The notes beneath the pieces were generated by a model. The model saw only the letters and a program-made list of their open reading frames with translations. It did not search any database and was not told the origin of the DNA. Shown in pieces: positions 14,233 through 51,971 of a stretch of DNA of 64,000 nt (position 1 is the stretch's first letter; every line of letters starts with the position of its first letter). The DNA lies in NCBI GenBank assembly GCA_016867835.1, contig VGIQ01000001.1:10094-74093 (forward strand). The letters are read 5' to 3'. The position numbers and the translations under genes were made by a program. The DNA comes from Calditrichota bacterium (lineage in GTDB: Bacteria; Electryoneota; AABM5-125-24; Hatepunaeales; Hatepunaeaceae).

Positions 14233-14299
14233 CCACAAAGAACACAAAGATCACAAAGATCATAGGGAATACTTGGTGTTCTTTGTGCTCTTCGTGGTG
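14230..14299. repeat. palindromic gene-junction repeat (AACTAACCACAAAGAACACAAAGA ... TGTTCTTTGTGCTCTTCGTGGTG), copy 1
   Basis: Imperfect 25-bp inverted repeat with an 18-bp loop. It begins within the stop codon of the upstream gene. The same family occurs at 16884, 17825, 18661 and 24202. Confidence 0.7.
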
Positions 14300-14310
14300 A
14301 AAAGGAAAAA

Positions 14311-15069: not shown

Positions 15070-15250
15070 TCGCCCCCCCTTTGATTCCCCCCCGCAGAGC
15101 GGGGGGGAGAGAAGGCAGAAGCGCGCCTGCGACTATTACTCCCCCGCGCAAAGCGGGGGGGAGTGAAGATGGAACGTTGTAGTGTATTCGCAACCGCCTG
15201 ACAAGGGGGCAAGACGCTCTACTCCCCCGCGCAAAGCGGGGGGGAATTAA
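15070..15250. repeat. three GC-rich hairpin repeats (CCCCCGC-N4/5-GCGGGGG), two of them near-identical 27-mers (TACTCCCCCGCGCAAAGCGGGGGGGAG)
   Basis: Hairpins at about 15083-15103, 15138-15162 and 15220-15244. The same hairpin core occurs 4x in tandem inside the CDS at 19552-19712. Confidence 0.7.
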
Positions 15251-15264
15251 AGGGGGGGCTGGAT

Positions 15265-15702
15265 GTGCATTGGAGTGGAATTAGGGATGGAAAATCCCCA
15301 ATGAGAGCAATCCCAAAGCGCTTGCCTAAAACTAAGCCTCATTCCGTCAATTTCGCCCGCAGCCTACGCCGTAAGATGACTGACGCCGAGCGGCGGCTGT
15401 GGGCAAGGCTGCGGTCAGGGCGAATAAGCGCCAAATTCCGGCGTCAGGAGCCTATCGGATCTTACATCGTGGACTTTGCTTGCATAGAAAGAGGATTGGT
15501 CATAGAACTTGACGGCTCGCTGCATTACACCGATGAAGGCAAGAAGAGGGATGAAGTTCGGGACGCCTACCTGCGGTCGTTGGGATTCATGGTGTTGAGG
15601 TTCTCAGATCGGGATGTGATGAACAATATCGAGGGGGTATGTCAGGCGATCCTTGAGCAAGTTCAATGGAAAAACGAAGAAAAGGAAGAGTCAGGAAAAT
15701 GA
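15265..15702 (+). CDS. DUF559 / Vsr-like endonuclease-domain protein
   Basis: MTDAERRLWARLR ... KFRRQEPIGSYIVDFACIERGLVIELDGSLH is the DUF559 signature. Lower GC than neighbours. The start could be M at 15301. Confidence 0.7.
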   Translation: MHWSGIRDGKSPMRAIPKRLPKTKPHSVNFARSLRRKMTDAERRLWARLRSGRISAKFRRQEPIGSYIVDFACIERGLVIELDGSLHYTDEGKKRDEVRDAYLRSLGFMVLRFSDRDVMNNIEGVCQAILEQVQWKNEEKEESGK

Positions 15703-17371: not shown

Positions 17372-17827
17372 ATGGAAATCTACGAACGCAATATAAACGC
17401 TGCGGTCCGGCGCGACGGAGACGATCATATCGTCACCAAAGCCTCGCTGCTTGACCTGAACCACAACATGCGAGTCGAAATCCGCGTCTGCATCGCCAAC
17501 CGGACGGTCGTCGCAGCCGAGGCGCAAATGGTGAAAGCCCCCTTTGGCATCTGCGACCAGACCGCCGCCTTTGCCCGCAATTTGACCGGACTCAGGATCG
17601 AGCGGGGCGTAACGCGCAAAGTCGCCGAAGTGATGGGTCGGTCGTCGGGCTGCACCCACCTTTACGAACTGGCCATCGAAGCCGTGCGCCTATCATCGAA
17701 TGTGCTGTTAGGCTTCGAAACCGGCGACCGCGAATGGCGTGAACGGCGCTTGACAGACGAGGAGTTCATCGAGCGGGCGAAGGGATTCCTGGCCAACTCT
17801 TGCCTGCCGTTTAGAATTGAAAACTAA
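17372..17827 (+). CDS. hypothetical protein (possible DUF2889-like; SGCTHLYEL motif)
   Basis: 151-aa ORF between two palindromic junction repeats. Family assignment is from memory of a Cys/His motif only. Confidence 0.4.
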   Translation: MEIYERNINAAVRRDGDDHIVTKASLLDLNHNMRVEIRVCIANRTVVAAEAQMVKAPFGICDQTAAFARNLTGLRIERGVTRKVAEVMGRSSGCTHLYELAIEAVRLSSNVLLGFETGDREWRERRLTDEEFIERAKGFLANSCLPFRIEN

Positions 17828-17875
17828 CCACAAAGAGCACAAATAGCACAAAGAAATGTGATTTTGTGATCTTTA
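17825..17875. repeat. palindromic gene-junction repeat, copy 3 (degenerate right half)
   Basis: AACTAACCACAAAGAGCACAAATAGCACAAAGAAATGTGATTTTGTGATCTTT. Confidence 0.5.
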
Positions 17876-17899: not shown

Positions 17900-18667
17900 A
17901 TGGATTCCCATTATATCAAGATCGATCCGGACGACCACCGCCTCGACATCATTCTCTCCCATCCACCCGTCAACATTCTGACTGGCGCGGTGATGAAGGA
18001 GATGATCCGAGTTTTGCAGGACGCCTCCTCCGATCCCCACCTGCGAGCCGTCGTCATTCGGTCTGAGGGGAAAGCCTGGTCGGCCGGGGCGGACGTGAGT
18101 GAACACCTGCCCGGGCAGTTTGAACCCATGCTCGACACCTTCGGCGAATTGTGCGAACTGGTGCGCACCTATCCGGTGCCAACCGTTGCTGCGGTGGACG
18201 GGCTCTGCCTTGGCGGCGGCTGTGAACTGGCGCTAATGTGCGATTTTGTACTGGCGTCGGAGCGCGCCAAGTTCGGTCAGCCGGAGATCAAAGTCGGTGT
18301 CTTCCCTCCCGCGGCTTGTGCCCATTTCGCGATGAAGATGGGCTGGCAGAACGCGATGGAGGTGATCCTGACCGGGGATGTCTTCAGTGCAGAAGACGCA
18401 GCAAAAATGAAATTGGCAACGAAGGTGTTTCCGGTGGATCGTTTTTCGGACGAAGTGGACCGATTCGTTGACCGGATCATTTGCAACAGTGGAGTTGTCC
18501 TTCGAGTGGCAAAGAGAGCGGCGCTCGAAGGGATGCGCCTTTCGCCCGAAATGGCGGCACAGGAATCGGATCGCATCTATCGGCAGGAACTGATGACGAT
18601 GGCGGACGCGGTCGAGGGGCTAAACGCCTTTATGGAAAAGCGCGAACCAAACTGGAAAGACAACTAA
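17900..18667 (+). CDS. enoyl-CoA hydratase/isomerase (crotonase family; candidate dienoyl-CoA hydratase)
   Basis: RAVVIRSEGKAWSAGADV and GLCLGGGCELALMCDFVLASE are crotonase oxyanion-hole motifs. 255 aa. Confidence 0.8.
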   Translation: MDSHYIKIDPDDHRLDIILSHPPVNILTGAVMKEMIRVLQDASSDPHLRAVVIRSEGKAWSAGADVSEHLPGQFEPMLDTFGELCELVRTYPVPTVAAVDGLCLGGGCELALMCDFVLASERAKFGQPEIKVGVFPPAACAHFAMKMGWQNAMEVILTGDVFSAEDAAKMKLATKVFPVDRFSDEVDRFVDRIICNSGVVLRVAKRAALEGMRLSPEMAAQESDRIYRQELMTMADAVEGLNAFMEKREPNWKDN

Positions 18668-18725
18668 CCACTAGGCACGCAAAGAGCGCCAAGAATTCTT
18701 TGTGGTCTTTGTGTTCTTGGTGGTA
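18661..18725. repeat. palindromic gene-junction repeat, copy 4
   Basis: AACTAACCACTAGGCACGCAAAGAGCGCCAAGAA ... TTCTTTGTGGTCTTTGTGTTCTTGGTGGT. Confidence 0.6.
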
Positions 18726-18738
18726 AAAAGAGGCCGAA

Positions 18739-20025
18739 GTGTTTTCTCAATTCAAATCCTGGTATGAAGAACGGCACGCTTACGCTAAAGGGTGGAAGGC
18801 GCGCACCGGCGGCAAAGTGATGGGCTGCTTTTGCAGTTATGCCCCCGAGGAAATCCTCGTCGCGGCGAACTGGCTCCCGGCGCGCGTGTTAGGCGGTCAC
18901 CAGCCCCAGGACGTCGCCGAAAAATATATGTTCGGGATGTATTGTCCCTTTTCCCGCGACGTCCTGGCGCAAGGGCTTAAAGGGCGCTACGACTATCTCG
19001 ACGGCATCCTGCTGACGCAAAGTTGCATTCACCTGCGGCAGTCGTTCAACTCATGGCAGATGCACGTTCCGGTGCCGTTCAATTACTACATCTATATGCC
19101 GCAGAAGGTTCAGACGCCTCATGCAGTGCCCTATCACCGGAGCGAACTGGCGAAGTTTCGCGCGGCTCTGGAGGCCTACGACGGGACAACGCTAAGTGAA
19201 GACGACCTGAACCGCGGCATCGCCGTCGTCAACGAGAACCGCCGCTTGATGCGCGAAGTCTATGAGTTTCGCAAAGGCGACAGCCCCAAGGTGACCGGCA
19301 CCGAAGCGATGTGGATGACCACCTCGAGCATGTGGGTTGATAAGGAGGAACATTCCGCCGAACTGCGGCGGGTGCTGAAGGAACTGCCCAACCGAAGCCT
19401 TACCCGCCAGACCGGGGCGAAATTGATGATCATCGGCTCGGAGAACGACGACATCCCGTTCATCGAGATGGTCGAAAAGGTCGGCGCGACGGTGGTGATG
19501 GACGAACACTGCACCGGGACGCGGTATTTTTGGAATCAATGTGAGGTTCCCCCCCTTCAATCCCCCCCGCTCAGCGGGGGGGAAGTGCGCGAGGATAAAT
19601 CCCCCCCGCTTAGCGGGAGGGAAGTGCGCGAGGATAAATCCCCTCCGCTTAGCGGGAGGGAAGTGCGCGAGGATAAATCCCCCCCGCTTAGCGGGGGGGA
19701 CGAGAAGGGGGGGCGCGACCTGATGACCGCGATCGCCCAGCGCTACATCGACCGCCCGACCTGCCCGGTGAAAGACTGGGAGGATCGCACCCGCTTCGAG
19801 CATATCCTGCGTCTGGCGCGGGAGTGGGAGGTGCAAGGCGCCATCATCATCCAGCAGAAGTTCTGCGACCCGCACGAGTGCGACATGGTGCCGCTAAGAG
19901 CCTTCCTGAACGAGCACGACATCCCGAACCTGATGCTCGAGTTCGACGCTACCACGCCGCTGGGGCCGTTTAGGATCAGGGTAGAAGCGTTCTTGGAGAT
20001 GATCGGGCAGGAGGAGTTGTTTTGA
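18739..20025 (+). CDS. 2-hydroxyacyl-CoA dehydratase / benzoyl-CoA reductase subunit family protein (HgdB/BcrB-like), carrying an in-frame 4x13-aa repeat insertion
   Basis: GTG start. Family-typical Cys-containing N-terminal region (GCFCSYAPEEIL ... LTQSCIHLRQS) and C-terminal FCDPHECD. 428 aa. Confidence 0.65.
   Translation: MFSQFKSWYEERHAYAKGWKARTGGKVMGCFCSYAPEEILVAANWLPARVLGGHQPQDVAEKYMFGMYCPFSRDVLAQGLKGRYDYLDGILLTQSCIHLRQSFNSWQMHVPVPFNYYIYMPQKVQTPHAVPYHRSELAKFRAALEAYDGTTLSEDDLNRGIAVVNENRRLMREVYEFRKGDSPKVTGTEAMWMTTSSMWVDKEEHSAELRRVLKELPNRSLTRQTGAKLMIIGSENDDIPFIEMVEKVGATVVMDEHCTGTRYFWNQCEVPPLQSPPLSGGEVREDKSPPLSGREVREDKSPPLSGREVREDKSPPLSGGDEKGGRDLMTAIAQRYIDRPTCPVKDWEDRTRFEHILRLAREWEVQGAIIIQQKFCDPHECDMVPLRAFLNEHDIPNLMLEFDATTPLGPFRIRVEAFLEMIGQEELF
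19552..19712 (+). repeat. 4 tandem copies of a 39-bp unit (AAGTGCGCGAGGATAAATCCCCCCCGCTTAGCGGGAGGG) inside the CDS, each containing a CCCCCGC-TTAG-GCGGG hairpin
   Basis: Translates in frame as SPPLSGGEVREDK / SPPLSGREVREDK x4. Copies differ at 1-2 positions. The hairpin core is identical to the intergenic repeats at 15070-15250. Confidence 0.8.
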
Positions 20026-20737: not shown

Positions 20738-21742
20738 ATGAAGGCACTTTATTCAAATTGCATTTTCTGCGGCTGCGACTTAGACGAGACCAATAGATCT
20801 CGCGAGCATATCGTTCCACAGATCATAATGGGATCATTCATCAGTCAAGATGTCTGCAGATGCTGTAACAGCAAATTGAGCGAGGCGGATAAGCTTATAC
20901 TGAATGATCCACGGATTATTCAAGCTATAAACTGTCTTGAACTTTCTGATATTCAAAATAACATCCTGAGAATAGGTGAAACCATAGGAACAGATACACA
21001 GGATGGCGCCGAAAGAAGGTTTCATATGAAGGATGGGCACCCTATACTTATTCCCAAGCCATCTTTTACGGGTGAAAGAGTCGCGGATATAGATAACACC
21101 TTGCCTCTACTGCGCACATTGTTATCCAGAGACAAGGAGCTGAATTGGCCAAACGAAAAGGCAGGCCGATACATCGGTGAAATCGTAACGCCAGAATTTC
21201 TCAAACTCAAGCCGCATGAGAGTATCGATCTTCGAGAAGCGGGATACTCAATCGAAATGAGGCAGATTGGAAACATAGAGACACATTTTCCTGCCATTTC
21301 GTTTCAAGATCATAGATTGATCGCTAAAATAATATACGAGATCAGTTTCTATCTGCTTTCGCCCGAGATCGCTGAGTCAGCGATGAAAGATCTTGACTAT
21401 TATAGAGATGTAGCTTACGGAAGTATTGAAAGAGAAGAAGGCAGATTGTTTACAAGATCGGTGGAGCTTCTTAACGAACCCAACTATCTTCATAGGATTC
21501 AGATCTCATTCTCTGCCTCAAGCTTTCTTACGGTTGACATCGACCTCTTTGCAAGTGTAAACTATCACGCTATCATCAGAACTGATAGAACCTATCCGCT
21601 GCCAATTCTAAATTCCCGGCAGGTTACCGCTGTCGGGTTGGGGATGACCTTTAACGATACATCGAATAGACACTTTGCGATAAGGTACTTCAATGATGCA
21701 GATTGGGCGGTCGAAAGATTCGATGACGGAGAAGAACAGTGA
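20738..21742 (+). CDS. HNH-endonuclease-domain protein with ~270-aa uncharacterised C-terminal region
   Basis: CIFCGCDLDETNRSREHIVPQ ... CRCCNSKLSE is the HNH motif (CxxC, catalytic His in EHIVP, second CxxC). 334 aa. The region is markedly AT-richer than the window. Confidence 0.65.
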   Translation: MKALYSNCIFCGCDLDETNRSREHIVPQIIMGSFISQDVCRCCNSKLSEADKLILNDPRIIQAINCLELSDIQNNILRIGETIGTDTQDGAERRFHMKDGHPILIPKPSFTGERVADIDNTLPLLRTLLSRDKELNWPNEKAGRYIGEIVTPEFLKLKPHESIDLREAGYSIEMRQIGNIETHFPAISFQDHRLIAKIIYEISFYLLSPEIAESAMKDLDYYRDVAYGSIEREEGRLFTRSVELLNEPNYLHRIQISFSASSFLTVDIDLFASVNYHAIIRTDRTYPLPILNSRQVTAVGLGMTFNDTSNRHFAIRYFNDADWAVERFDDGEEQ

Positions 21743-22911: not shown

Positions 22912-24204
22912 ATGTCCACCTACCCCACCGAACCCCTGAAGTGCTGGGCTAAAGCCAAGGAACTTCGGGATAACTACTATCGCGACTACGCCACCGCCCA
23001 CGAGTGCGGCGGGTTGCGCTGGACCGGCGGCGCTTGGTCGTTCGACGCCATCCCCGCCGGGCTAGGGCGCGACGTCTGGCCCATCACCGGCGAGCCTTAC
23101 GGCGCGTCGATGGCCTTCAACAAGCCATTCAGCCAGCGCGCCCTCGAAGCCGCCGAAGCCAAGGGCTGGGCGCGCGATCTCTGCAGTTATATGCGCAACT
23201 ACTGGGGGTCGATGTATCTCGACGAGTTCAACTTCGGCGGGAAGTATCCGAAGCCCGACTTCGCCTTTCAGGATCATATCTGCTGCTCCCACGCCAAGTG
23301 GTATCAGCATGTCGCGGAATACAAGCAGATCCCCTACTTTTGTATCGACGTTTCGGTCGGTCCCTATCACCTGATCGACGACCACAAACTGAACTTCGTC
23401 GTCGGGCAGATGCACGAGTCGATTGACTTCCTCGAGCGCATCACCGGCCGCCGCTACGACGACGAACTGCTGATCGAAGCGGTGCAGAACGAGACGCGAG
23501 CCACCTCCGCCTGGGCCGAGGTCTGTGCCCTCAACAAGGCGATCCCGGCACCGCTCGACGAAAAGACGATGTATTCGCTCTACGTCCTCGGGACGCTCAA
23601 CAAGTCGAAGAAGGAGTTCGCCGACTTCTACGAGGAATTGCGGGACGAGGTTGCCGACCGCGTGGCGCGCGGCATCGCTGCCGTTCCGAGCGAGCGTTGC
23701 CGGCTGATGTCCGATACCCAGCCGCCGTGGGGCTTCTTGAAGATATTCCGCTACCTCGAAGGCTTCGGCGCGGTCTCGGTCGGGAGCCTTTACACCTTCG
23801 CCCTAATCGGCATCTGGGAAGAGAAGCCGGACGGCAGTTGGGGCGCGCGGACAACTCCGATGGCCCTCGGCTTGCCGATGGATACCCGCGATCAGGCGCT
23901 CCGGATACTGGCGGACTGGAACCTCTCCAAACCCGAATGGCAGCATTTCTATGACGCAAGTTTGAAGTCGAAGATGATGCTGCGGATCGTCAAGGAATGG
24001 AAACTCGACGGCGTCATGCTGCACCTGAATCGCGGCTGCGAAGGCCTCTCCTGCGGCATAATGGAAAACCGCCTCGCCATCGCCGAAGCCGGCGTGCCGG
24101 TGATGACCTTCGAAGGCAATATGGGCGACGAGCGGGAGTTCGACGAAGCGAAGACCAAAGACCGCATGGATGCGTTCATGGAGACGCTGGGACTTAGGAA
24201 TTAA
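22912..24204 (+). CDS. 2-hydroxyacyl-CoA dehydratase / benzoyl-CoA reductase subunit family protein (HgdA/BcrC-like)
   Basis: [23 protein letters not shown] and [10 protein letters not shown] are Cys-motif regions typical of the HGD-D family. 430 aa. Confidence 0.65.
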
Positions 24205-24270
24205 CCACAAAGAACACAAAGATCACAAAGATATCCTGGTGCTCTTGGTGTGCTTTGTGGTGAGAATAAT
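24202..24270. repeat. palindromic gene-junction repeat, copy 5
   Basis: AATTAACCACAAAGAACACAAAGATCACAAAGA tatcc TGGTGCTCTTGGTGTGCTTTGTGGTGAG. Confidence 0.65.
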
Positions 24271-24286
24271 CATTAGGGATAGATAA

Positions 24287-25085: not shown

Positions 25086-25135
25086 AAGTAAGCGGGTAGG
25101 CGAGTAAGCGGGTAAGCGGGTAAGTGAACAGGCGG
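25086..25135. repeat. short tandem repeat (GTAAGCGG / GTAAGCGAG)n
   Basis: gtaagcgggtaggcgagtaagcgggtaagcgggtaagtgaac. An inverted copy of the motif lies at 25530-25550 (cttactcgcttactc). Confidence 0.6.
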
Positions 25136-27189: not shown

Positions 27190-27252
27190 GGCAAGTATTA
27201 AGTATCAAGTGCCAAGTATCAAGTATCAAGTGCCAAGTATCAAGTATCAAGT
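27190..27252. repeat. short tandem repeat (CAAGTATCAAGTG)n
   Basis: gtatcaagtgccaagtatcaagtatcaagtgccaagtatcaagtatcaagtgtcaagtg. The same motif occurs at 29735-29770 and 61823-61852. Confidence 0.7.
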
Positions 27253-27257
27253 GTCAA

Positions 27258-29732
27258 GTGGGCCGGATAACCATTGTTGTTGATGGGCGGGAGGTCGAGG
27301 TTCAGACGGGCGGCCGCCTGAGACTCGAACTGATCGCGTCCGGCATCTACTTGCCCGGACTGTGCGATCATCCCGACCTTGATCCATTTCGGCCCTTCCA
27401 ATGGTCTGAATCGGTCTGGCGGGGAAATGCAGAATACGGAATGAGGAATGAGGAAGGCGGACTTGATGATGGAACACTGCATTCCAGCCACCTCAATCCG
27501 CACTGCGACCTCTGTCTGGTCTCCATTGAGGGCGTCGGGCTGGTGCGGTCGTGCGATGCGATCGTCCGCGAGGGAATACGCGTCCGGACTAATGGCGACG
27601 ATATCACCCGGGCGCGTCGAGACGCTTTGAAGGCGATCCTCGCCCGTCATCCCCACGCCTGCCTTACCTGCGCCCAACGGCACGGCTGCGACCGACTCAG
27701 TTGCAGCATGAACGTTCCGGTCCTCGAACGCTGCTGTGAATTGCTGGGCCGCTGCGAGATCGGCCGGGTCTCGGAGTGGGTAGGCATCCCTCCTGATACG
27801 CCTCCCTATCGCAATGAAGGTCGTCCTGCCGTAATCGATGAACCGCTCTACCTGCGCGACTACGAACTTTGCATTAGTTGCACCCGCTGCGTCCGCATAT
27901 GCCGCGACGTCCGCGGCGTCGATGCGCTCGGCGCGTCGATCGTCAAATCGGGTGTTGTCGTCGGGACGAACGAACCGACACTTGCCGACTCGGACTGCCG
28001 CTTCTGCGGCGCCTGTGTCGAAGTTTGCCCCACCGGCGCCTTGCGCGACAAGCCCGGGATAGCGCCTCTGATAGAAGGGCAGGCGCCTTGCGTGGAATCG
28101 TGCCCGCTCGGTATCGACATCCCCGGCTACCTCGCTGAAATCGCGGCTGGTCGTCCTTTGAATGCGTTAGAGATCATTCGCGACCGCGCTGCGCTGCCGG
28201 GCGTGCTCGGCTACGCCTGCTTTCATCCCTGTGAAGCGAACTGCCGCCGGACGGCGCTCGGCGAGCCAGCCTCGATCTGCCTCCTGAAGCGGTTCGCCAG
28301 CGACGTTGCAAGCGAATGTGAAGTCCACGCGCCTAAAGTGCCTCCGTCCGGTCGCCGGGTGGCCATCGTCGGCTCCGGGCCGGCCGGTCTGGCCGCTGCC
28401 TATGACCTCTTGCGGATGGGCCATGCGGTCACGGTCTTCGACCGCAATGCCCGCCCCGGAGGGATGCTCCGTGAAGCGATTCCCAACTTCCGTCTGCCCG
28501 ATGCGGTCATCGACCGCGATCTGAAATATCTCAAAGACCTGGGAATGGGTTACCACCCCGGCGGGGAGTTGGGACGCGATTTCACTCCTGAAGACCTGCA
28601 CGATTTGAATTTCGACGCTCTGTTAGTGGCAATAGGGCTGAGTCAGACTGCCCGGCTCGGTGTGCCCGGCGAAGAGCATCCTGCAGTAATTAGAGGGCTT
28701 GACTTTCTAAGGTCCATTTCAAGCGGGAATCCCCCCGAACTGGAGGGTGATGTCATTGTGGTGGGCGGAGGCGCGGTGGCGGTCGACTGTGCGATGAGCG
28801 CGCTCCGGGTTGGCGCGTCGAATGTCCGCATGGTCTGCCTTGAAAGCCGTGAAGAGATTCCGGCGCATCCCGACGAACTCCGTCTGGCGCAGGACGAGGG
28901 GATCGCCATCGATTACGGCTGGGGCGTCGAGTCATTCAACGTCCGGGACGACGAATTGACCGGTATCCGACTGAAGAAGTGCACCCGCGTCTTCGACCCC
29001 GCCGGTCGGTTCAGCCCGCTCTATGATACTACGACCACGAAAGACCTCCCCGTCCGGAGTGTGATCGTCGCCATCGGGCAACGGCTTGGGATAGACCGCC
29101 GGTTTCTGACCGGTAAGGGATTGTTCACTTGCGGGGATATGGTTACCGGACCGACGACCATCGTCGAAGCGATGGCGGATGGACGTCGCGCCGCACGAGA
29201 GGTTGACCGGTTTCTGGGCGGCAAGGGCGAAGTGTCGAAGAGTATTGCCAGGTCAGCCGGGGGCAGCCTTGGTCGCATCGGCGGCTTTGCAAGCCTTGAC
29301 CGCTCACACCCTCTGGAACAGCCTGTTTCGGAGCGCACCACCAACTTCGACCCGATCCAGGTCGGCTTCGACGATAGTGCAGCCCGCCTGGAAGCAAGCC
29401 GCTGCCTGCAGTGCCATTTGCGCGCCAGGATCAGTCCCTCACCTTTGCCTCCGGATGAATGGCGCCGGTTCAAACCCGAAATGGTTGACGACGTGCCGGC
29501 ACTCGAGGGCGTCCTGATTCTTGCCGATGCCGACCGCAAGACGATTCGTATTAGCGGCGCCTCGGACCTGAGAACCCTCTTCCGTGAAGCCCACCACGAA
29601 AATCCCGATGCCGTATGGTGCCGGTGGGAGATAGATCCGCTCTATACCAAACGGGAGTCGGAACTCCTCGCGGCGCATCTGGCTGCGCACGGCGCGATGC
29701 CGGTGTCGGGGGAATTGGATGATCTCTTCTGA
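27258..29732 (+). CDS. multidomain iron-sulfur flavoprotein: NuoG/HoxU-like 2Fe-2S N-terminus + 2x[4Fe-4S] ferredoxin + GltD/NfnB-like FAD/NAD(P)H oxidoreductase (candidate ferredoxin:NAD(P)H oxidoreductase)
   Basis: GTG start. N-terminal GRITIVVDGREVEV ... CDHPDL. 4Fe-4S motifs CISCTRCVRICRD and CRFCGACVEVCPTG. Dinucleotide folds RVAIVGSGPAGLAAAYDL and VIVVGGGAVAVDCAMSA. 824 aa. Confidence 0.65.
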   Translation: MGRITIVVDGREVEVQTGGRLRLELIASGIYLPGLCDHPDLDPFRPFQWSESVWRGNAEYGMRNEEGGLDDGTLHSSHLNPHCDLCLVSIEGVGLVRSCDAIVREGIRVRTNGDDITRARRDALKAILARHPHACLTCAQRHGCDRLSCSMNVPVLERCCELLGRCEIGRVSEWVGIPPDTPPYRNEGRPAVIDEPLYLRDYELCISCTRCVRICRDVRGVDALGASIVKSGVVVGTNEPTLADSDCRFCGACVEVCPTGALRDKPGIAPLIEGQAPCVESCPLGIDIPGYLAEIAAGRPLNALEIIRDRAALPGVLGYACFHPCEANCRRTALGEPASICLLKRFASDVASECEVHAPKVPPSGRRVAIVGSGPAGLAAAYDLLRMGHAVTVFDRNARPGGMLREAIPNFRLPDAVIDRDLKYLKDLGMGYHPGGELGRDFTPEDLHDLNFDALLVAIGLSQTARLGVPGEEHPAVIRGLDFLRSISSGNPPELEGDVIVVGGGAVAVDCAMSALRVGASNVRMVCLESREEIPAHPDELRLAQDEGIAIDYGWGVESFNVRDDELTGIRLKKCTRVFDPAGRFSPLYDTTTTKDLPVRSVIVAIGQRLGIDRRFLTGKGLFTCGDMVTGPTTIVEAMADGRRAAREVDRFLGGKGEVSKSIARSAGGSLGRIGGFASLDRSHPLEQPVSERTTNFDPIQVGFDDSAARLEASRCLQCHLRARISPSPLPPDEWRRFKPEMVDDVPALEGVLILADADRKTIRISGASDLRTLFREAHHENPDAVWCRWEIDPLYTKRESELLAAHLAAHGAMPVSGELDDLF

Positions 29733-29780
29733 GACTCCAAGTATCAAGTATCAAGTGTCAAGTATCAAGAGCAGAGAGCA

Positions 29781-30272
29781 ATGAAACGTAAAGCGCCGCT
29801 TCCGCCCGGCCTCATTATTCGCAATCTGCGTCGGGAAGACAAGGTTCGCCTGATAGAACTCGACGCCCAATTGACCGGCCTCCGGCGCGACCTCTATTAC
29901 GACCGTAAGTTTCGCCGCTTCTTCGGGGAAGACGCGCCTATCCTGCTCGGCCTTGTGGCTGAAGCCGCAGGCCGGCTTGTCGGGTATATTCTGGGCGAAG
30001 TCAATACCGGCGAATATGGCATAATGCAGCCGGTCGCGTCGGTCGATACGATCGGCGTCGATCCGCAATATAAGCGGACCGGCGTCGGGCGGACGCTGCT
30101 CGAAGAATACTGCGCCGTCGCGGCCAAAGCCGGCGTCGAGACGATGACGACGCTCGTCTCTGAAGACTGGCCCGAAGTGATCTCCTTCTTTAAGGAGCGC
30201 GGCTTCCATCCGGCGAAACTGGTTGCGTTCGAGCGGGAACTCCCGCGTGAGGGGCTCTTTGGCCGCGGATAA
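29781..30272 (+). CDS. GNAT-family N-acetyltransferase
   Basis: IGVDPQYKRTGVGRTLLEEY is the acetyl-CoA-binding motif A. 163 aa. Confidence 0.75.
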   Translation: MKRKAPLPPGLIIRNLRREDKVRLIELDAQLTGLRRDLYYDRKFRRFFGEDAPILLGLVAEAAGRLVGYILGEVNTGEYGIMQPVASVDTIGVDPQYKRTGVGRTLLEEYCAVAAKAGVETMTTLVSEDWPEVISFFKERGFHPAKLVAFERELPREGLFGRG

Positions 30273-30354: not shown

Positions 30355-30483
30355 GGAATGTATCGCGAAATCGGCTTCGAGGTGATGATCGTCCCTTTCG
30401 ACCCGGTAGAGTGCGAAGGCTGCTGCAAGGAGTGCTTCAGCGAAGGCGAGTCGGGGGCGATGGTAGTCTATACGAAGAAGTGA
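30355..30483 (+). CDS. small Cys-rich ORF (42 aa; CEGCCKEC) of unknown function
   Basis: MYREIGFEVMIVPFDPVECEGCCKECFSEGESGAMVVYTKK. A longer ORF from 30223 overlaps the GNAT gene in another frame. Weak call. Confidence 0.2.
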   Translation, partial: GMYREIGFEVMIVPFDPVECEGCCKECFSEGESGAMVVYTKK

Positions 30484-30590
30484 GCGAGTAAGTGAGTAAG
30501 CGAGTAAGCGAGACATTTTCGCCTATGCTCCCACAAACTCGGCTGCCCGCACACTCGTTCACTCGTCTACTCGCTCACTCGCACACTTTC
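30481..30590. repeat. inverted pair of (GAGTAAGC)n short tandem repeats flanking a 36-bp spacer
   Basis: gagtaagtgagtaagcgagtaagcgag ... cactcgttcactcgtctactcgctcactcgc. Confidence 0.6.
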
Positions 30591-31664: not shown

Positions 31665-32165
31665 GTGTCCGACCAGCGACTCTCCGCCATTATGTTCACC
31701 GACATCGTCGACTACACAAGCAAGATTCGCATCGATGAAGCAAAAATGCTGCGCCTGCTGGAGGTGCACAACCGGATGCTGCGCGAGATTTTCGACCGGC
31801 ACGAAGGCGAGGTCGTCAAGGGCACCGGGGACGGCTTTCTGGCGCGCTTCAACAGCGCGACCAGCGCGGTTCTGGCGGCATTGGAGATCCAGAAGGACCT
31901 GACTGAATACAATCGGGGGAAGCCGGACCACGACCAGATTGAGGTGCGCATCGGCGTTCATCTGGGGGACATCGTCATTCGGGAGGGCGATGTTTTCGGC
32001 GACGGCGTCAACGTGGCGGCGCGGGTGCGGCCCCTCGCGGTGCCGGGCGGCATCTGCATCACTCGCGCCATCTACGATGTGGTGCACAAGAATATGGGGC
32101 AGGAAGTTTATCCGTTTGGTAAGAAACGTCTAAAAGGACTTGATATTACTGGGGGCAGTTTATAG
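31665..32165 (+). CDS. stand-alone class III adenylate/guanylate cyclase catalytic domain protein
   Basis: AIMFTDIVDYTS ... KGTGDGFLARF ... RIGVHLGDIV matches the cyclase homology domain. 166 aa, GTG start, no sensor domain. Confidence 0.7.
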   Translation: MSDQRLSAIMFTDIVDYTSKIRIDEAKMLRLLEVHNRMLREIFDRHEGEVVKGTGDGFLARFNSATSAVLAALEIQKDLTEYNRGKPDHDQIEVRIGVHLGDIVIREGDVFGDGVNVAARVRPLAVPGGICITRAIYDVVHKNMGQEVYPFGKKRLKGLDITGGSL

Positions 32166-32285
32166 TTGCCCTTTCCGAGAGTGGGTGTTCGCGTAGGGTC
32201 GGATTCCAATCCGACCATCTCTTGGGCGATTTGGAAATCGCCGCCGTTAATATTACCTGGTGCAATATATTGTGTCAAGAAGGGC

Positions 32286-32392
32286 GCTTGTCATGCTGAA
32301 CGCAGTGAAGCATCACGACCTAAGATGGACATTCCAGACGAGATCCTTCACTTCGTTCAGGATGACACTAATCGATGCACCCCTTAATGTTA
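32286..32392 (+). repeat. ~105-bp MITE-like dispersed repeat with internal ~25-bp terminal inverted repeats, copy A
   Basis: gtcatgctgaacgcagtgaagcatc ... gatccttcacttcgttcaggatgac. It is the near-exact reverse complement of 51722-51828. Confidence 0.75.
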
Positions 32393-32419
32393 ATGGGTGC
32401 AGATAATTGTGGTATTCTC

Positions 32420-32476
32420 CAGTAGGGCAGGCATTCCTGCCTGCCCTTTGGACGGACAAGAATGTCCGTCCTACTG
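32420..32476. repeat. composite REP-like element (GGGCAGGCATTCCTGCCTGCCC + GGACGGACAAGAATGTCCGTCC)
   Basis: Same hairpin family as 12982-13050. Confidence 0.7.
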
Positions 32477-32555
32477 ATGCTACTATTTGATGCCCCGATT
32501 AATAATAGGATTTTCCTCTCACCCAATCCTTATTAATAACTGCAGAAAAGCGTTG

Positions 32556-32640
32556 CCTTGGCAGGGGGCGGACATTCTTATCCGCCCCCTGCCAAGACGA
32601 GCTTCCAATTCAGGGCGGACAGGAATGTCTGCCCTCCAAG
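32556..32640. repeat. composite REP-like element (long hairpin CTTGGCAGGGGGCGGACATTCTTATCCGCCCCCTGCCAAG + GGGCGGACAGGAATGTCTGCCC)
   Basis: 16-bp perfect stem. Same family. Confidence 0.7.
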
Positions 32641-32750
32641 AACAACAATATGCACTCATTAATAAAGAGCGGATTCGGACCACACAGTGCTTTCCATTAG
32701 CCTTGTATTGAGCCAAGTGAGTAGTTTCGCTCGAACAGCCTTAATATCCC

Positions 32751-37386: not shown

Positions 37387-37894
37387 GTCTCTTCCAGAGT
37401 CGCAGGGCGCCCTAAGAGCGCCAGGCAAAGTCCTGATGAGCCTCCGTGTCAACGGCATTGCCTATGACGTCGCCGTCGAACCGCGCCATATGCTGGTCGA
37501 ACTCCTGCGCGACGACCTCGGCTTGACCGGCACCAAGGTCGGCTGCAACATGGGCGATTGCGGTGCCTGCACGGTGTTGCTCGACGGCCTGCCGGTCTTC
37601 TCGTGCCTGGTGCCGGCGCTTGAGGTTGACGGACGCGATGTGACCACCATCGAAGGTCTGGCCGAAAACGGGCACTTGCACCCGCTGCAAGAGGCTTTCG
37701 TCGAGGTCGGCGCCATCCAGTGCGGCTTCTGCACCCCCGGCATGGTGCTCTCGTCGCTGGCGCTCCTGCGGGAGACGCCCGATCCAACGGACGAAGACAT
37801 ACGAAGAGCCTTGTCCGGCAATCTCTGCCGATGCACGGGGTATCAAAAGATATTCGAGGCGATACGGGAAGCGAGTAAGCGAGCGAGCGTTTAG
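37376..37894 (+). CDS. molybdenum hydroxylase [2Fe-2S] small subunit (CoxS/XdhA/HcrC-like)
   Basis: CNMGDCGACTV and CGFCTPGMV are Cys motifs. Confidence 0.8.
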   Translation: MALESLPESQGALRAPGKVLMSLRVNGIAYDVAVEPRHMLVELLRDDLGLTGTKVGCNMGDCGACTVLLDGLPVFSCLVPALEVDGRDVTTIEGLAENGHLHPLQEAFVEVGAIQCGFCTPGMVLSSLALLRETPDPTDEDIRRALSGNLCRCTGYQKIFEAIREASKRASV

Positions 37895-45825: not shown

Positions 45826-46497
45826 CTACTCTTCAAGTGCGCGTTTAGCATCTTCGAACACCTTGACCTGCGGCTGCGAAGCGTCGATCACCCGAATCCG
45901 ATGAGGTTCTTCACGTGCAATGGCAAGGTAGCCTTCGCGGACGCGGGCGAGGAACTCGAAGCCTTCACGTTCCATCCGGTCGACCGGACGGGGGATACGC
46001 TTTAGTGCAGAATCCGGCGTCAGGTCGAAGAGGAGCGTCCGCTCGGGGACCAGACCGCCCGCAGAATGCCGGTTGACGTTCCGGACAAACTCCCGGTCAA
46101 GCCCCCGCCCGAAGGCTTGGTAAGCGTCGGACGAATCGTAGAACCGATCGAGCAGGACGGTCCTGCCCTGGTCGAGCGCCGGTGCGATTACCTGCCGAAC
46201 CAGTGCCGCACGGGCCGCGCTGAAGAGGAGAAACTCCGTCATTGCGCCCGGAATATCATCTCTCGCGCCGGAAGTCTGCGCTGAGACTACATCGCCGAGC
46301 AGAATCTGCCGGATCGCTTCCCCGACCGGGGTGCCGCCCGGCTCGCGCAGAAGGACCACCTCATTGCCCTGCACCCTTAGATATTCTGCCAACGACGCGG
46401 CCTGGGTTGACTTGCCCGAGCCGTCGATTCCTTCGAGGGTGATCAGTTTACCCGGCACGGCGACCCGCCTTGCCGCCCTGCAAGAGATTGTAAACAC
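45826..46497 (-). CDS. tmk: thymidylate kinase
   Basis: LITLEGIDGSGKSTQ P-loop. DRF/DRY lid region. Confidence 0.85.
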   Translation of the reverse strand: MFTISCRAARRVAVPGKLITLEGIDGSGKSTQAASLAEYLRVQGNEVVLLREPGGTPVGEAIRQILLGDVVSAQTSGARDDIPGAMTEFLLFSAARAALVRQVIAPALDQGRTVLLDRFYDSSDAYQAFGRGLDREFVRNVNRHSAGGLVPERTLLFDLTPDSALKRIPRPVDRMEREGFEFLARVREGYLAIAREEPHRIRVIDASQPQVKVFEDAKRALEE

Positions 46498-47203
46498 CGA
46501 CGCCGATCATCAGAAGCGACCCCGCCATGCTGCCGGTGAAATGGACGCCCCCGACCTCGAAGAGGTTCAGCCGCGCATCATAGTGCCGGACGATCTCATT
46601 GAAGAACCTGAAGATACCGTAGAGAACCAGAAACAGGTGAAAGAGTTCTCCTTCGAAGCGGCGGTACGGTGTCCTTAGAATGAGTGCGATGCCGATCCCG
46701 GCGGCGTAAAGCGATTCGTAAAGTTGCGTAGGGTGGAGCGCTTTCCCCGGATAGACCGCCCCGGCGAGGCAAGTCTCAGGGAAGCGCAGACCCCAGGGCA
46801 GATCGGTCGGTGTGCCGAAGCAGCAGCCGTTGAGATGGCAGCCGATCCGTCCCAATGCCAGGCCAAAGGCGAGCGACGGCATCATCACATCGGCGACTTG
46901 CAGGAAACGGAGACCGCGCTTGCGTGTCTGCCAGATCACTATCGGAATCGCGGCGGCAACGCCTCCCAGGACGACCAGCCCGGCAATGCCGATGGTGCCG
47001 TCGCTCTGTATCGGGCTGATCGCGTCGAGCCACCGGCCTTCGAACTCCCGCCAATGCGCAATCACATAGGTAAGTCGAGCACCTGCCAGCGAGCCGACCA
47101 TAATCCAGAGCGTCAGATCGGATATCGCCTCGGTCGAAACGCCCATTGCCTTCCCCCGCCGAGCAGCCAGATAGAAACCGAAGACGAAGGCGAGCATCAC
47201 CAT
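46448..47203 (-). CDS. lgt: prolipoprotein diacylglyceryl transferase
   Basis: GRIGCHLNGCCFGTPTDLPWGL is the Lgt signature. Confidence 0.8.
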   Translation of the reverse strand: MVMLAFVFGFYLAARRGKAMGVSTEAISDLTLWIMVGSLAGARLTYVIAHWREFEGRWLDAISPIQSDGTIGIAGLVVLGGVAAAIPIVIWQTRKRGLRFLQVADVMMPSLAFGLALGRIGCHLNGCCFGTPTDLPWGLRFPETCLAGAVYPGKALHPTQLYESLYAAGIGIALILRTPYRRFEGELFHLFLVLYGIFRFFNEIVRHYDARLNLFEVGGVHFTGSMAGSLLMIGVGVYNLLQGGKAGRRAG

Positions 47204-47275
47204 GAGGCCGTAACTGTGAAGTTTGAAGGCGCCTATCTGAAAGATGACCGGATGCAGTTGAGTCCTTTCGTAAGA

Positions 47276-48046
47276 TCAGGCCGCCGGACGGCCGTAATGA
47301 ACATCGGTGTTGTAATCGATCCGCACCTTGCCCGAGCGCTCGAACCTTGCGAACGCGGTATCGACGGCTTTTAGCAGGTCGTGATAGTCCGGGTCATATG
47401 GAAGCGGCATATAGGAAGCCGAGAGTATCCGTGCCATAAGCCCTTCCCGGTTCAGGTCCTGGTGGTTTTGGAGCGACCGGGTCTCGAACCGCCCACTGAA
47501 GAACGCGTTCAAGCGGCCCTGATAGCGGAAGAAATCGTCGAGTGCTTCCATTCCGCGGCGAAAGCGAACGATTATTTCCTCATACGCTTCGTTGAAGCCG
47601 CCTTCCCGAATGCGCCGGTTCCAGAAGATGACCGTGCTCCCGGATGGCTTCAGAATGCGCGCGAACTCGATCCGGGCGCGATCGGCATCGAACCAGTGAA
47701 AGGCCTGACCGGCGGCGGCGCAGTCGAACTGCCCGCTCGCGAGCGTCGTCGCTTCGGCCGAACCGTCAACCGATGTCCAACTCAAGACACGGTAGTGACG
47801 TTCGGCTTCACGCCGCATTTCAGGATTCGGCTCGACAGCCCAGACCCGGCAGCCTAAGGCGAGGAACGGTTCGCAAGATAGCCCCGATCCCGACCCGACA
47901 TCGGCCACCATTGAGCCGGGTCCAAGTCCCAACTCGGCCTTTAGGAAGTCCTGCATCGCGAGCGGATAGCGCGGTCTCGCCGCGTGATAGAAGGGCGTCC
48001 GGGAACTGAACCGGCCTTTGGGATCAACTTCGGCGTTCAGGGACAT
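47276..48046 (-). CDS. class I SAM-dependent methyltransferase
   Basis: VADVGSGSG is motif I. Confidence 0.7.
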   Translation of the reverse strand: MSLNAEVDPKGRFSSRTPFYHAARPRYPLAMQDFLKAELGLGPGSMVADVGSGSGLSCEPFLALGCRVWAVEPNPEMRREAERHYRVLSWTSVDGSAEATTLASGQFDCAAAGQAFHWFDADRARIEFARILKPSGSTVIFWNRRIREGGFNEAYEEIIVRFRRGMEALDDFFRYQGRLNAFFSGRFETRSLQNHQDLNREGLMARILSASYMPLPYDPDYHDLLKAVDTAFARFERSGKVRIDYNTDVHYGRPAA

Positions 48047-48693
48047 CCGCCTACCACCAGGACGATCTCACCCTTCAAAGTCCGCTTGGAACAGATATCT
48101 CGCAGTTCACCGAGTGTCCCGCGGAAGACTTCCTCATGCAATTTGGTCAATTCACGGCAGAGGGCAGCGGGCCGATCCGATCCGAAAGCAGTTTCCATTT
48201 CCGAAAGCGTCCGTCCGATACGGTGCGGGGCTTCGAAGAAGACCATCGTCCGTTCTTCAGCCGCGAGTGCAGTCAGGCGCCCGGAACGTCCTTTAATCGG
48301 AAGAAAGCCCTCAAAGGCAAAGCGATGAAACGGCAATCCCGCGTGAAGCAAGGCCGTCGTGACTGCCGTAGGACCGGGGAGGACTTCGAGTGGGAGTCCG
48401 GCGTCGATTATGGAACGGATCACCCGATAACCGGGATCGGATAGCCCCGGCGTTCCGGCATCCGATACAAGGGCAATCTGCTCGCCCCTTGCAATGCGCT
48501 CGACGACGGTGGCCGCTACCTTGCTTTCGTTCTGGTCATTGCATGACTGAAGGCGTTTATGCAGGCTGAGGTGTTTGAGAAGCAAGCCCGTGCGTCGAGT
48601 GTCTTCGGCGAGCACCAGGTCGGCGTTCGCGAGGGCTTCGACGGCGCGCCGGGTGATGTCACCGAGATTGCCGATGGGAGTTGCCACCAGCAT
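48037..48693 (-). CDS. rsmI: 16S rRNA (cytidine1402-2'-O)-methyltransferase RsmI-like
   Basis: MLVATPIGNLGDITRRAVEALANADLVLAEDTRRTG is the tetrapyrrole-methylase-fold N-terminus typical of RsmI. Short at 218 aa. Confidence 0.65.
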   Translation of the reverse strand: MLVATPIGNLGDITRRAVEALANADLVLAEDTRRTGLLLKHLSLHKRLQSCNDQNESKVAATVVERIARGEQIALVSDAGTPGLSDPGYRVIRSIIDAGLPLEVLPGPTAVTTALLHAGLPFHRFAFEGFLPIKGRSGRLTALAAEERTMVFFEAPHRIGRTLSEMETAFGSDRPAALCRELTKLHEEVFRGTLGELRDICSKRTLKGEIVLVVGGCP

Positions 48694-48733
48694 CAGCGAA
48701 CCGGAACGTGAAGTGGAAGGTAGACCCAGAGTA

Positions 48734-49237
48734 TTATTGAAGACGTTTGATCATCTGAACGCAGGGACTATCAGCACCCCACAAGGTCGGAAACTCCTCC
48801 AATCTTCGAAAGCCCAAATCACAATAGAATGCACGGGTTTGTTTGTAGAACAAATCCGGATGGGTATCGGATAGGGTCTTTACCTGCAGGAACTCAACTC
48901 CGTGTTTTCGCAGATGGTTTTCGATAACCTCCATTAGTCTTCGACCTATCCCCTGACGATGATATGCCGATAGTACTCCCATCACCAACACTTCAGCCGC
49001 ATATTCGCCGGTCAGCTCTACGGTTAGAAATCCAATCGGGGTTTTATCCCTCCATGCCACCAGAGTCGGAAGTCGATCGATCTTGATCACAAAATCGCGT
49101 ATTGAGGATTCGATGCCGAACCACTCCGGAAGCGACCGCAGGATAGGCTCGCAGATTGCGGCCTGCCCGGTCACCGGGCCCTGGATGGTAATGTTCTGTT
49201 TCGACGACATCAGTTTGATCATGCCGTTGTTGGTCAA
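48734..49237 (-). CDS. GNAT-family N-acetyltransferase
   Basis: HRQGIGRRLMEVIENHL. Confidence 0.7.
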   Translation of the reverse strand: MTNNGMIKLMSSKQNITIQGPVTGQAAICEPILRSLPEWFGIESSIRDFVIKIDRLPTLVAWRDKTPIGFLTVELTGEYAAEVLVMGVLSAYHRQGIGRRLMEVIENHLRKHGVEFLQVKTLSDTHPDLFYKQTRAFYCDLGFRRLEEFPTLWGADSPCVQMIKRLQ

Positions 49238-49252
49238 CTCAAGATTGATGCT

Positions 49253-50907: not shown

Positions 50908-51040
50908 TTTAGGTCCTGAATTGAGGGATGGGTGGAAGAATTGGCGATGAAGAATCGAAGATCAGGCCCAATCCTTTAATATAGGATTTGAGCCGCGAGA
51001 GCACAAGTTGGGAATGGAATGCAAGGCAGACCGGTTCTTA

Positions 51041-51655: not shown

Positions 51656-51721
51656 CAAGCCGTGCCGGTCCGGCGGAGAAAGATCGGATGGATCGATGGT
51701 GCGGAACAAGTTCAACGATGT

Positions 51722-51828
51722 ACTAAGGGGTGCATTCGATGGTGTCATCCTGAACGAAGTGAAGGATCTCGTCTGAAATGCCCATCTTCGCGGGTCGAGA
51801 TGCTTCACTGCGTTCAGCATGACAAGTG
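51722..51828 (-). repeat. MITE-like dispersed repeat, copy B (reverse complement of 32286-32392)
   Basis: gtcatcctgaacgaagtgaaggatc ... gatgcttcactgcgttcagcatgac. Flanks also match (cttgtcatgc / gcaccccttaat). Confidence 0.75.
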
Positions 51829-51971
51829 CCCTGGTTGACACTCTTCACTCTACACTCTTCACACCAAGGCCTATAGATTCATGTGCCGGGTGGACGAGGA
51901 CGTCCACCCGCACCACATCTCCCCGTTACATGCCGGACGAGGACGTCCGGTTTACACGAGCATTCTACGCA

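Follow-up and report, generated by a model that had tools for sequence, protein, structure and literature searches.

The window, meaning the whole 64,000-nt stretch of DNA analysed here, holds two copies of a short, gene-less element in inverted orientation (Table 1). Their presence and positions had been reported in a first-pass annotation and are borne out far above chance. A degenerate 25-mer, GTCATSCTGAACGMAGTGAAGSATC, searched with up to three mismatches, has exactly four matches in the window, which are the four arms of Table 1; none is expected by chance and none occurred in 100 shuffles. Each copy comprises one GTCATGCTGAACGCAGTGAAGCATC arm and one GTCATCCTGAACGAAGTGAAGGATC arm, inverted relative to each other, and within each copy the arms agree at 22 of 25 positions, with mismatches at positions 6, 14 and 22. 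The resulting doublets have outer lengths of 77 and 80 nt.

The relationship between copies A and B is evident along their entire length. An inverted-repeat search of the window pairs 32322–32386 with 51724–51788 (65 nt, 89%) and, separately, 32272–32320 with 51793–51841 (49 nt, 92%). When 32272–32390 is aligned globally with the reverse complement of 51720–51841, 107 of 123 columns are identical (87%), and the copies differ in the centre by one 3-nt indel and a few substitutions. The centre of the two copies is homologous, and the description of some 20 differing central bases does not hold.

Table 1. Features of copies A and B and of the reading frames that they affect, in window coordinates.
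Feature	Position	Strand	Remark
Copy A, full unit, 141 nt	32248..32388	+	delimited by the third copy, L132
Outer 13-mer ATTACCTGGTGCA, left	32252..32264	+	lineage-specific outer inverted repeat of the 141-nt unit
Copy A arm 1, SRM-type hairpin GTCATGCTGAACGCAGTGAAGCATC	32290..32314	sense +	outer stem ATGCT/AGCAT, GCA tip
Copy A spacer, 27 nt, partly self-complementary	32315..32341	.	prolongs the doublet's long hairpin
Copy A arm 2, SRM-type hairpin GTCATCCTGAACGAAGTGAAGGATC	32342..32366	sense -	outer stem ATCCT/AGGAT, GAA tip
Outer 13-mer ATTAAGGGGTGCA, right end of copy A	32376..32388	-	inverted partner of 32252..32264
Spurious 73-codon ORF through copy A	32166..32387	+	repeat-derived HAERSEAS, EILHFVQDD
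Copy B, inverted relative to A	51720..51841	-	87% identical to 32272-32390
Copy B arm GTCATCCTGAACGAAGTGAAGGATC	51744..51768	sense +	degenerate 25-mer match
Copy B arm GTCATGCTGAACGCAGTGAAGCATC	51799..51823	sense -	degenerate 25-mer match
Spurious flavin-reductase N-terminal extension	51716..51841	-	42 codons; 44 if the start is TTG 51709

The ends of the element are defined by a third copy, which was found on a metagenome contig (Ga0194127_10015230, locus L132, GC 57.5%). Here, positions 2809–2949 match window positions 32388–32248 with 98.6% identity over 141 nt (blastn), which sets the unit of copy A at 32248–32388. In alignment A2, the homology of these two copies is limited by TAATATTACC... 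on the left and ...CCCCTTAAT on the right. The extent of ~105 bp first given to the element was thus right in location and wrong at its ends, as copies A and B share sequence out to 32272/51841 and the full unit is longer still. The unit reaches 42 nt and 22 nt past the arms and has outer inverted 13-mers (ATTAnnnGGTGCA), which are paired in the computed DNA fold of copy A; copy B lacks the outer-left ~24 nt. The pattern ATTANNNGGTGCA has nine matches in the window vs 1.9 expected, and six of these lie within 32145–32663. The predicted fold of the doublet as a whole is one long hairpin (z = -3.7 to -5.2), significant on both strands.

The third copy sits at an unrelated locus, between a gene for a T9SS-type secreted protein and gcvT. 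It very probably belongs to the same population as the window, since the same metagenome holds a contig (Ga0194127_10012181, L241) that is 99.5% identical to window 46041–54027 and includes copy B. The metagenome scan, which required both window arms, found 16 loci, all in related 'K_DeepCast' lake samples (Ga01941xx) that we take to be from Lake Tanganyika. It missed the contig that carries copy B, so the metagenome copy counts are lower bounds. Among copies A, B and L132, the extent of flank held in common varies. It had been reasoned that two copies only, with no target-site duplications, could be the remnant of a segmental duplication. Copies are now known to number at least three, and target-site duplications are not visible in copies A, B and L132, whether next to the arms or where the 141-nt unit terminates, as judged from two full copies with boundaries placed to within about 2 nt.

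Two side observations concern the setting of the window. The best protein relatives of one window gene come from Calditrichaeota MAGs, at 68–70% identity. In SRR16108672, short-read contigs end at window position 32212 and resume at 32478, on either side of copy A. The doublets appear to break short-read assemblies, as expected of a repeat.

Both copies disturb the reading of nearby genes. The ORF at 32166–32387 traverses both arms of copy A and its peptide (...HAERSEAS...EILHFVQDD...) is read-through of the repeat, as had been proposed. The ORF at 51041–51841, which encodes the flavin reductase, crosses copy B. Its Pfam Flavin_Reduct match spans residues 68–213, close orthologues (226–233 aa, 70–76% identity) cover just the last ~83% of it, and the N-terminus of one orthologue, MPFHTIVPESLSAPERHALM, aligns with window residues 44–63. 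From orthologue coverage and start, the true start is likely to be one of two in-frame TTG codons, at 51715–51713 or 51709–51707. The extension by copy B is therefore real, and by orthologue alignment it comprises ~42–44 codons and not the 62 first assigned. Copy B ends ~5–10 nt from this likely start, with its long hairpin directly upstream of the start codon. In a related genome with partly conserved gene order, no arm precedes the orthologous flavin reductase; this absence would fit a gain of copy B, at a locus (L242) whose divergence (70% in coding sequence) is too great for an empty site to be delimited.

Structure and spread of the arms

Each arm follows the frame 5'-GTC-(5-bp stem)-GA-(short tip hairpin, GNA loop)-GA-(5-bp stem)-C-3', which in the window arms reads GTC-(ATSCT)-GA-(R-C-GNA-G-Y)-GA-(AGSAT)-C. 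Positions 6 and 22 swap jointly between the arms (ATGCT...AGCAT vs ATCCT...AGGAT) and position 14 falls in the middle of the GNA loop, which together mean that each arm can fold alone.

The same pairing is maintained in other organisms. The pattern used to search for arms, GTCATSCTGARCGMAGYGAAGSATC, permitted mismatched stem combinations, and positions 6/22 are C..G or G..C in every one of the 141 arms among the matches listed. In the same set, positions 11/17 are G..C in 110 arms, A..T in 29, A..C in two and G..T in none, and the identical 25-mer GTCATCCTGAACGAAGTGAAGGATC is found in 19 of the 141 arms of other phyla. Partner arms were picked by proximity alone, with their stems unconstrained by the search. 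These stems include ATTCT/AGAAT, ACCCT/AGGGT, GTCCT/AGGAC and ATTTT/AAAAT, and the shortest tips are the 5-nt C-GNA-G, the longest being hairpins of ~30 nt.

Alignment A3 shows no variation in GTC, in either GA step or in the final C. A seven-pair model applied to its 28 distinct arms has 98% of cells paired, with compensatory change on both sides in four of the seven pairs, and slid controls reach at most 51%. The covariation score of this alignment was attained by none of 500 shuffles. Directly before the motif, at -1, a T or C stands in 126 of the 134 arms among the matches listed, and all four window arms read T-GTCAT...AT-C. Folding of single arms with nearest-neighbour DNA parameters gives -1.6 to -3.7 kcal/mol, which is no better than shuffles; the Neisseria repeat NTS, to which we return below, gives -8.9 kcal/mol by the same procedure. 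As the computed stability of a single arm is weak, it is covariation that supports the arm hairpin.

The arms are not confined to the lineage of the window. In species-representative genomes (one genome per species, scanned with GTCATSCTGARCGMAGYGAAGSATC), the 25-mer occurs at no fewer than 120 loci in more than 15 phyla. These include Acidobacteriota, Chloroflexota, Patescibacteria, Planctomycetota, Bacillota, Bacteroidota, Omnitrophota, Nitrospirota, Gemmatimonadota, Verrucomicrobiota, Pseudomonadota (several proteobacterial classes), Calditrichota and others. The arms are also present in 68 viral-contig loci, and overall more than 200 loci with these arms come from other organisms, the figure from the genome scan being a minimum. 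What had been taken for ~25-bp terminal inverted repeats is an inverted pair indeed; the arms are not the lineage-specific ends that a transposase recognizes, each being a self-folding hairpin found in more than 15 phyla.

The inverted doublet is the typical form of these arms. Among the matches listed, 69 of 134 evaluable arms have an inverted partner within 160 nt, vs 3% of random windows, and the median outer length of the doublets is 83 nt. The outer stems of the two arms differ in 41 of 60 doublets among the matches listed, as they do in the window doublets. In addition, tandem 'flank + half-arm' duplications lie 5' of 13 of the 139 arms scored among the matches listed. In other organisms of the related 'K_DeepCast' metagenomes, the identical arm pair forms the centre of an element of ~187 nt with sharp ends, TATACAYAGCGTCA...TGACGCTATGTATA. 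At least eight unrelated loci hold this longer element, the ends of which would fit a TA duplication.

A GIY-YIG nuclease gene associated with the arms

When all ORFs of the 120 listed loci were clustered without prior assumption, one small family stood out: a GIY-YIG protein of ~95 aa, at seven of the 120 loci among the matches listed. The other recurrent ORF families near arms were ubiquitous two-component and ABC-transporter families only. An arm lies within about 100 nt of the GIY-YIG ORF at six of the seven loci, again among the matches listed; the seventh (L119) encodes a longer fusion protein and has a weaker link to the arms. In a Chloroflexota (L073) and an Acidobacteriota (L104) locus the order is arm(+)-gene-arm(-), and in Hymenobacter, Pedobacter and one Cyclobacteriaceae genome the gene lies among doublets.

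The partner proteins match Pfam GIY-YIG with E = 1e-10 to 1e-18; NCBIfam has no family specific to them, and a PDB search returned only a weak UPF0213 relative, 1zg2 (E = 0.002). The Chloroflexota protein has at least 8000 database relatives, many of them 70–76% identical across phyla. The association also holds in reverse: 10 distinct genomic contexts drawn from eight homologue clusters all have arm-type motifs no more than 320 nt from the gene. A tblastn search with the Chloroflexota protein led to a 94-aa gene of N. gonorrhoeae that lies amid seven canonical NTS repeats within 1.5 kb. The two proteins, the second of which is gonococcal SsnA, are 47% identical (E = 3e-26).

The Ssn proteins are single-domain GIY-YIG proteins of ~94 aa (CDD cd10448; Chenal et al., Nat Commun 2025, PMC11893778). 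They bind hairpin repeats solely in ssDNA and solely in one orientation, cut a few nucleotides upstream of the motif and do not bind RNA (PMC11893778). These repeats are known as NTS in Neisseria (CGTCATTCCCGCGMAVGCGGGAATCYRG) and as 'SRM' generally; the three bases 5' of the palindrome are critical for cutting and the C 3' of it is critical for binding (PMC11893778). SRMs were found near 71% of ssnA homologues, and binding and cleavage were shown for the Neisseria and Wolbachia pairs only (PMC11893778). In N. meningitidis, the NTS-gene-NTS arrangement lowers transformation (PMC11893778). The authors remark on the IS-like layout of NTS-ssnA-NTS and on an analogy to REP/RAYT, transposition by Ssn not having been demonstrated (PMC11893778).

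The window arms very probably belong to this class. Like SRM repeats, they are imperfect palindromes of 20–50 nt that can form a hairpin, and they have the same oriented flanks, with HGTC(W)(Y) on the 5' side of the palindrome and a C directly on its 3' side. In related loci outside the window, the motif flanks genes that can be assigned to the Ssn family by sequence similarity. The published search string, HGTCWYN(0-2)YYVSBRHN(0-5)WNVSBRGN(0-2)RNCYNB, has no match in the window, and both arms and the cross-phylum consensus fail it, in a comparison where the NTS control passes. The failure is due to the G-A step after the outer stem. Judged by sequence, the arms are clearly a subtype that lies outside the published string and yet is part of the same system. 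SRM repeats are a kind of element published in 2025 (Chenal et al., PMC11893778); term searches of the main text of that paper turned up no gene-less tight inverted doublets within a longer unit. A text search of the literature for the arm sequence returned unrelated primer matches only.

With seven Ssn-like proteins as tblastn queries, no ssnA gene was found in the 64 kb of the window. The gene is likewise missing from the 16 metagenome loci with the same arm pair, L132 included, and from the 68 arm-bearing viral-contig loci. Gene-less copies far outnumber those that carry the nuclease gene. The first-pass annotation had suggested a search for a cognate transposase; none was found in the window, where Pfam detects no transposase domain among ~60 ORFs, and no transposase family is enriched across the 120 loci among the matches listed. 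The gene associated with the arms elsewhere is instead the GIY-YIG ssDNA nuclease of the Ssn family. Taken together, the elements of the window are in all likelihood inverted doublets of SRM hairpins, gene-less counterparts of SRM-ssnA-SRM units.

Other partners and readings were tried and rejected. RAYT, IS200/IS605 and DDE transposases are not enriched near the listed arms and are absent from the window. A hammerhead-like reading of the arm (GUC...CUGA...GAA) lacks the CUGANGA and GAAA cores, and the partner family acts on DNA.

Possible spread of the doublets and alternative readings

How such doublets could multiply is suggested by the chemistry of the partner. When DNA becomes single-stranded, as in replication, transformation or conjugation, each strand would show one sense arm at its 5' edge, and a cognate Ssn encoded elsewhere in the genome would be expected to nick either strand just outside the doublet. 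Cleavage by GIY-YIG enzymes yields 3'-OH and 5'-phosphate ends, and the established chemistry of the superfamily is not known to involve a covalent DNA intermediate. Copying to new sites would thus proceed by host replication or repair and not by cut-and-paste, and the doublets would persist as non-autonomous passengers, in the manner of RAYT-dependent REPINs. Repair-dependent copying would suit the variable flank extent of copies A, B and L132. Outer stems that differ within a doublet, variable copied flanks and half-arm duplications may be the footprints of nick-and-copy.

We propose, tentatively, that SRM doublets are REPIN-like mobile DNA copied in trans by Ssn nickases through host-repair nick-and-copy; this is possible, though doubtful as it stands. 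The unit extends 42 and 22 nt past the arms and Ssn cuts a few nucleotides upstream of its motif, so that nicking by Ssn alone does not explain the boundaries. Nor does nick-and-copy account for the sharply bounded, TA-flanked ~187-nt element at its eight or more loci, which leaves room for a MITE route in the case of such composites.

The identification of the doublets as SRM elements is compatible with a service to the host, through modulation of ssDNA recombination or uptake, a role proposed for NTS in Neisseria, or as an mRNA-stabilising or terminator-like hairpin. We regard such a function as rather unlikely. The effect of NTS-gene-NTS on transformation in N. meningitidis (PMC11893778), the intergenic position of all three copies, the long hairpin of the doublet and the placement of copy B against the flavin-reductase start codon would all agree with it. 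However, no T-run follows either doublet and a terminator scan was negative at the element, the orientation relative to neighbouring genes differs between copies, and the orthologous locus of the relative has no element at all.

The 'MITE-like' label of the first-pass annotation is apt in that the element is short, gene-less, intergenic, bounded by inverted repeats and multi-copy; it is less so for hairpin arms with a nuclease partner and no visible target-site duplication. A classical MITE would require that a DDE-type transposase moves the 141-nt unit by its outer ends, with the SRM doublet as cargo or internal palindrome. That the unit has outer inverted 13-mers of its own, and that a sharp-ended, TA-compatible ~187-nt element surrounds the identical arm pair elsewhere, speak for such a route. 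However, the ~60 window ORFs hold no transposase domain, the two full copies compared show no evident target-site duplication, and copy B has only part of the outer sequence. Moreover, it is the arm pair and not the outer ends that is conserved across lineages, and elsewhere the arms bracket GIY-YIG genes. The classical MITE is accordingly an improbable explanation of the window copies.

A structured non-coding RNA, whether cis-acting or a small RNA, would explain the significant folding on both strands and the covariation of the arm stems. It is very improbable: the window has no Rfam match at the gathering score of a family, permissive Rfam scans of two regions gave sub-threshold, chance-level miRNA-like hairpins (E = 0.03–0.6), the arms point either way with respect to genes and form inverted pairs, and the partner family acts on ssDNA and does not bind RNA (PMC11893778). 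A segmental-duplication remnant or chance palindrome, to which the mere two copies within 64 kb and the lack of a visible target-site duplication might have pointed, is refuted by L132 at its unrelated locus, by the zero matches expected by chance and by the more than 200 loci with the same arms in other organisms.

The reading as SRM doublets extends the published system (PMC11893778) in three minor respects: an arm subtype outside the search string, a REPIN-like doublet form, and nesting in longer lineage-specific units. As this subtype is seemingly among the most widespread, SRM censuses that use the published string may under-count. The nuclease genes of the subtype are ~70% identical across phyla, and the 25-mer is a candidate for the site that a large clade of Ssn ssDNA nucleases recognizes, enzymes that are of biotechnological interest. 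Recognition of doublets allows systematic masking and correction of start codons, and the doublets, their nesting in TA elements and the half-arm duplications offer handles on how SRM repeats multiply. If copying in trans by Ssn were true, it would constitute a class of transposable element without transposase chemistry, spread over most bacterial phyla.

Comparison with known repeat systems

The window doublets resemble classical MITEs, such as Correia/NEMIS and those derived from IS630, in their size, lack of coding capacity, inverted ends and intergenic position, as well as in the creation of false ORFs and altered 5' regions. They differ in that no target-site duplication is evident (two full copies compared) and no cognate DDE transposase was found, and in that their 'ends' are self-folding hairpins common to many phyla. 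The ends of a classical MITE are shared with a transposase-encoding IS, whereas in full-length relatives of the window doublets it is a GIY-YIG gene that lies between the arms. Doublets nested inside true MITEs do exist, as the TA-flanked ~187-nt element of other organisms carries the same doublet.

IS200/IS605 and their PATE derivatives likewise have subterminal hairpins that are recognized in ssDNA, and they produce no target-site duplication. Their end hairpins, however, have the same orientation on one strand and TnpA cuts at both ends. The arms described here are inverted and each strand therefore has one sense motif only, unlike IS200/IS605. Neither TnpA nor TnpB was found near the arms.

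The architecture of the doublet is REPIN-like. REP/BIME elements and REPINs, with their RAYT (a Y1 HUH enzyme), are also short extragenic palindromes that fold in ssDNA. In REPINs these form inverted doublets of ~80–140 nt, and the enzyme gene, present once and with repeats on its flanks, is far outnumbered by non-autonomous copies. However, REPs are species-specific, whereas the arm motif is conserved across phyla, and a repeat-flanked RAYT gene is not seen here, the sole enriched small neighbour family being GIY-YIG. This enzyme is not HUH/Y1 and works without a known covalent intermediate, and thus, unlike RAYT, has no intrinsic strand transfer.

The closest counterpart is SRM/NTS with Ssn. 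The Neisseria repeat dRS3 (ATTCCC-N8-GGGAAT) is the palindromic core of NTS and the prototype of the class, and differs from the arms in its sequence and its restriction to Neisseria. The stem of the arm described here is broken by two G-A/A-G steps, its tip is a C-GNA-G mini-hairpin or a longer hairpin of variable form, and the window copies are tight, gene-less doublets inside a lineage-specific unit of 141 nt. The arms and the SRM/NTS repeats share the oriented hairpin, the palindrome of which follows GTC(A/T)(C/T) and precedes a C, and both occur in many phyla as mostly intergenic repeats. In both, inverted motifs stand to either side of ~94-aa single-domain GIY-YIG genes, and the proteins that partner the arms are 47% identical to gonococcal SsnA.

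The arm pair in other sequence contexts

The inverted pair of SRM-type (Ssn-related motif) arms found in the window also occurs, in identical form, at the centre of an element of approximately 187 nt, which has sharp ends (TATACAYAGCGTCA...TGACGCTATGTATA) and is compatible with a TA duplication. This element is present at at least eight unrelated loci in lower-GC organisms from the related 'K_DeepCast' metagenomes. A further subfamily with flanks of its own was seen at loci L122 and L069. As the metagenome pattern scan missed the contig carrying copy B (Ga0194127_10012181), the pattern-scan counts are lower bounds.

Copy A lies in a 585-nt intergenic region that also holds three palindromes of a third repeat family (GGRCGGACAnGAATGTCYGYCC, each approximately 22–27 nt), so that three or more types of repeat are intermingled in this spacer. 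Copies of the 13-mer ATTAnnnGGTGCA likewise cluster here, around copy A. Short-read contigs from sample SRR16108672 break on either side of copy A, at window positions 32212/32478. On its outer left side, copy A contains a sigma-70-like site on the minus strand (32250–32278; TTGACA, 17 nt, TAATAT; 10/12 matches), which is directed outward from the element. Copy B also has the TTGACA half of this site (51835–51840, plus strand).

Half-arm duplications and the neighbours of ssnA homologues

Immediately 5' of the complete arm, 13 of 139 arms carry tandem duplications that combine 6–10 nt of flank with ~12 nt from the start of the arm (GTCATCCTGAGC), compared to 0 in the distance control. Nicking and template switching at the hairpin may have left these duplications behind. 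They are also conspicuous near the homologue of ssnA, the GIY-YIG ssDNA nuclease gene, on a Planktothrix plasmid, where the homologue adjoins the DISARM gene drmA. Elsewhere, ssnA homologues are recurrently located directly downstream of MmeI-type restriction-modification genes. Others fit tightly, with gaps of no more than tens of nucleotides, into the space separating bioA from bioD or a biotin-carboxyl-carrier gene from an HMG-lyase-like gene.

Other repeats and open reading frames of the window

The repeat search of the window showed that many gene boundaries carry short tandem arrays with a unit of 7–8 nt, often as inverted pairs around genes. In the related genome whose orthologous flavin-reductase locus lacks the arm (L242), GTTTGGA arrays occupy the corresponding place (2905–2945). 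A DUF3800 ORF (4652–5323) and an HNH_5 endonuclease-domain ORF (20738–21742) are interspersed with metabolic genes, and the ORF at 60713–61822 combines a LIM domain (E = 2.4e-18) with a DA1-like peptidase region (E = 1.5e-8), which is unusual in a bacterium.

Coordinates of repeats and related loci (array types and coordinate groups are paired in the order in which they were listed)
Feature	Positions or loci	Remark
CACAAAGA-type arrays	14234-14303, 17809-17855, 18649-18729, 24186-24275	
GTAAGCGR-type arrays	7296-7335, 25087-25134, 30479-30582, 37866-37889	
CAAGTRT-type arrays	27191-27287, 29737-29783, 61819-61880	
ACTCTTCAC array	51842-51868	adjoins copy B
GGRCGGACAnGAATGTCYGYCC palindromes	7884, 13028, 32450, 32566, 32613, 40386, 40431	
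Tandem array, 3 x 39 nt	19559-19700	TCCCCCCCGCnnAGCGGGGGGGA hairpin family; repeat search
~187-nt element	L123-L137	metagenome contigs Ga0194111-Ga0194127
Flank + half-arm duplications	L003, L018, L023, L028, L035, L042, L043, L048, L053, L062, L077, L095	5' of arms
Flank + half-arm duplications	L171 295-365 and 1067-1131; L154	L154: downstream region
ssnA-homologue neighbours	L138-L143, L171; L154-L169; L144	

The same search identified a second hairpin family, TCCCCCCCGCnnAGCGGGGGGGA, at 15072–15259 and 19549–19715. Directly downstream of the first cluster is a DUF559 endonuclease-like ORF (15265–15702; Pfam E = 2.7e-36), with SDR and thiolase genes as its neighbours on either side. The TCCCCCCCGCnnAGCGGGGGGGA hairpins and this ORF may be another pairing of a small nuclease with a hairpin repeat.
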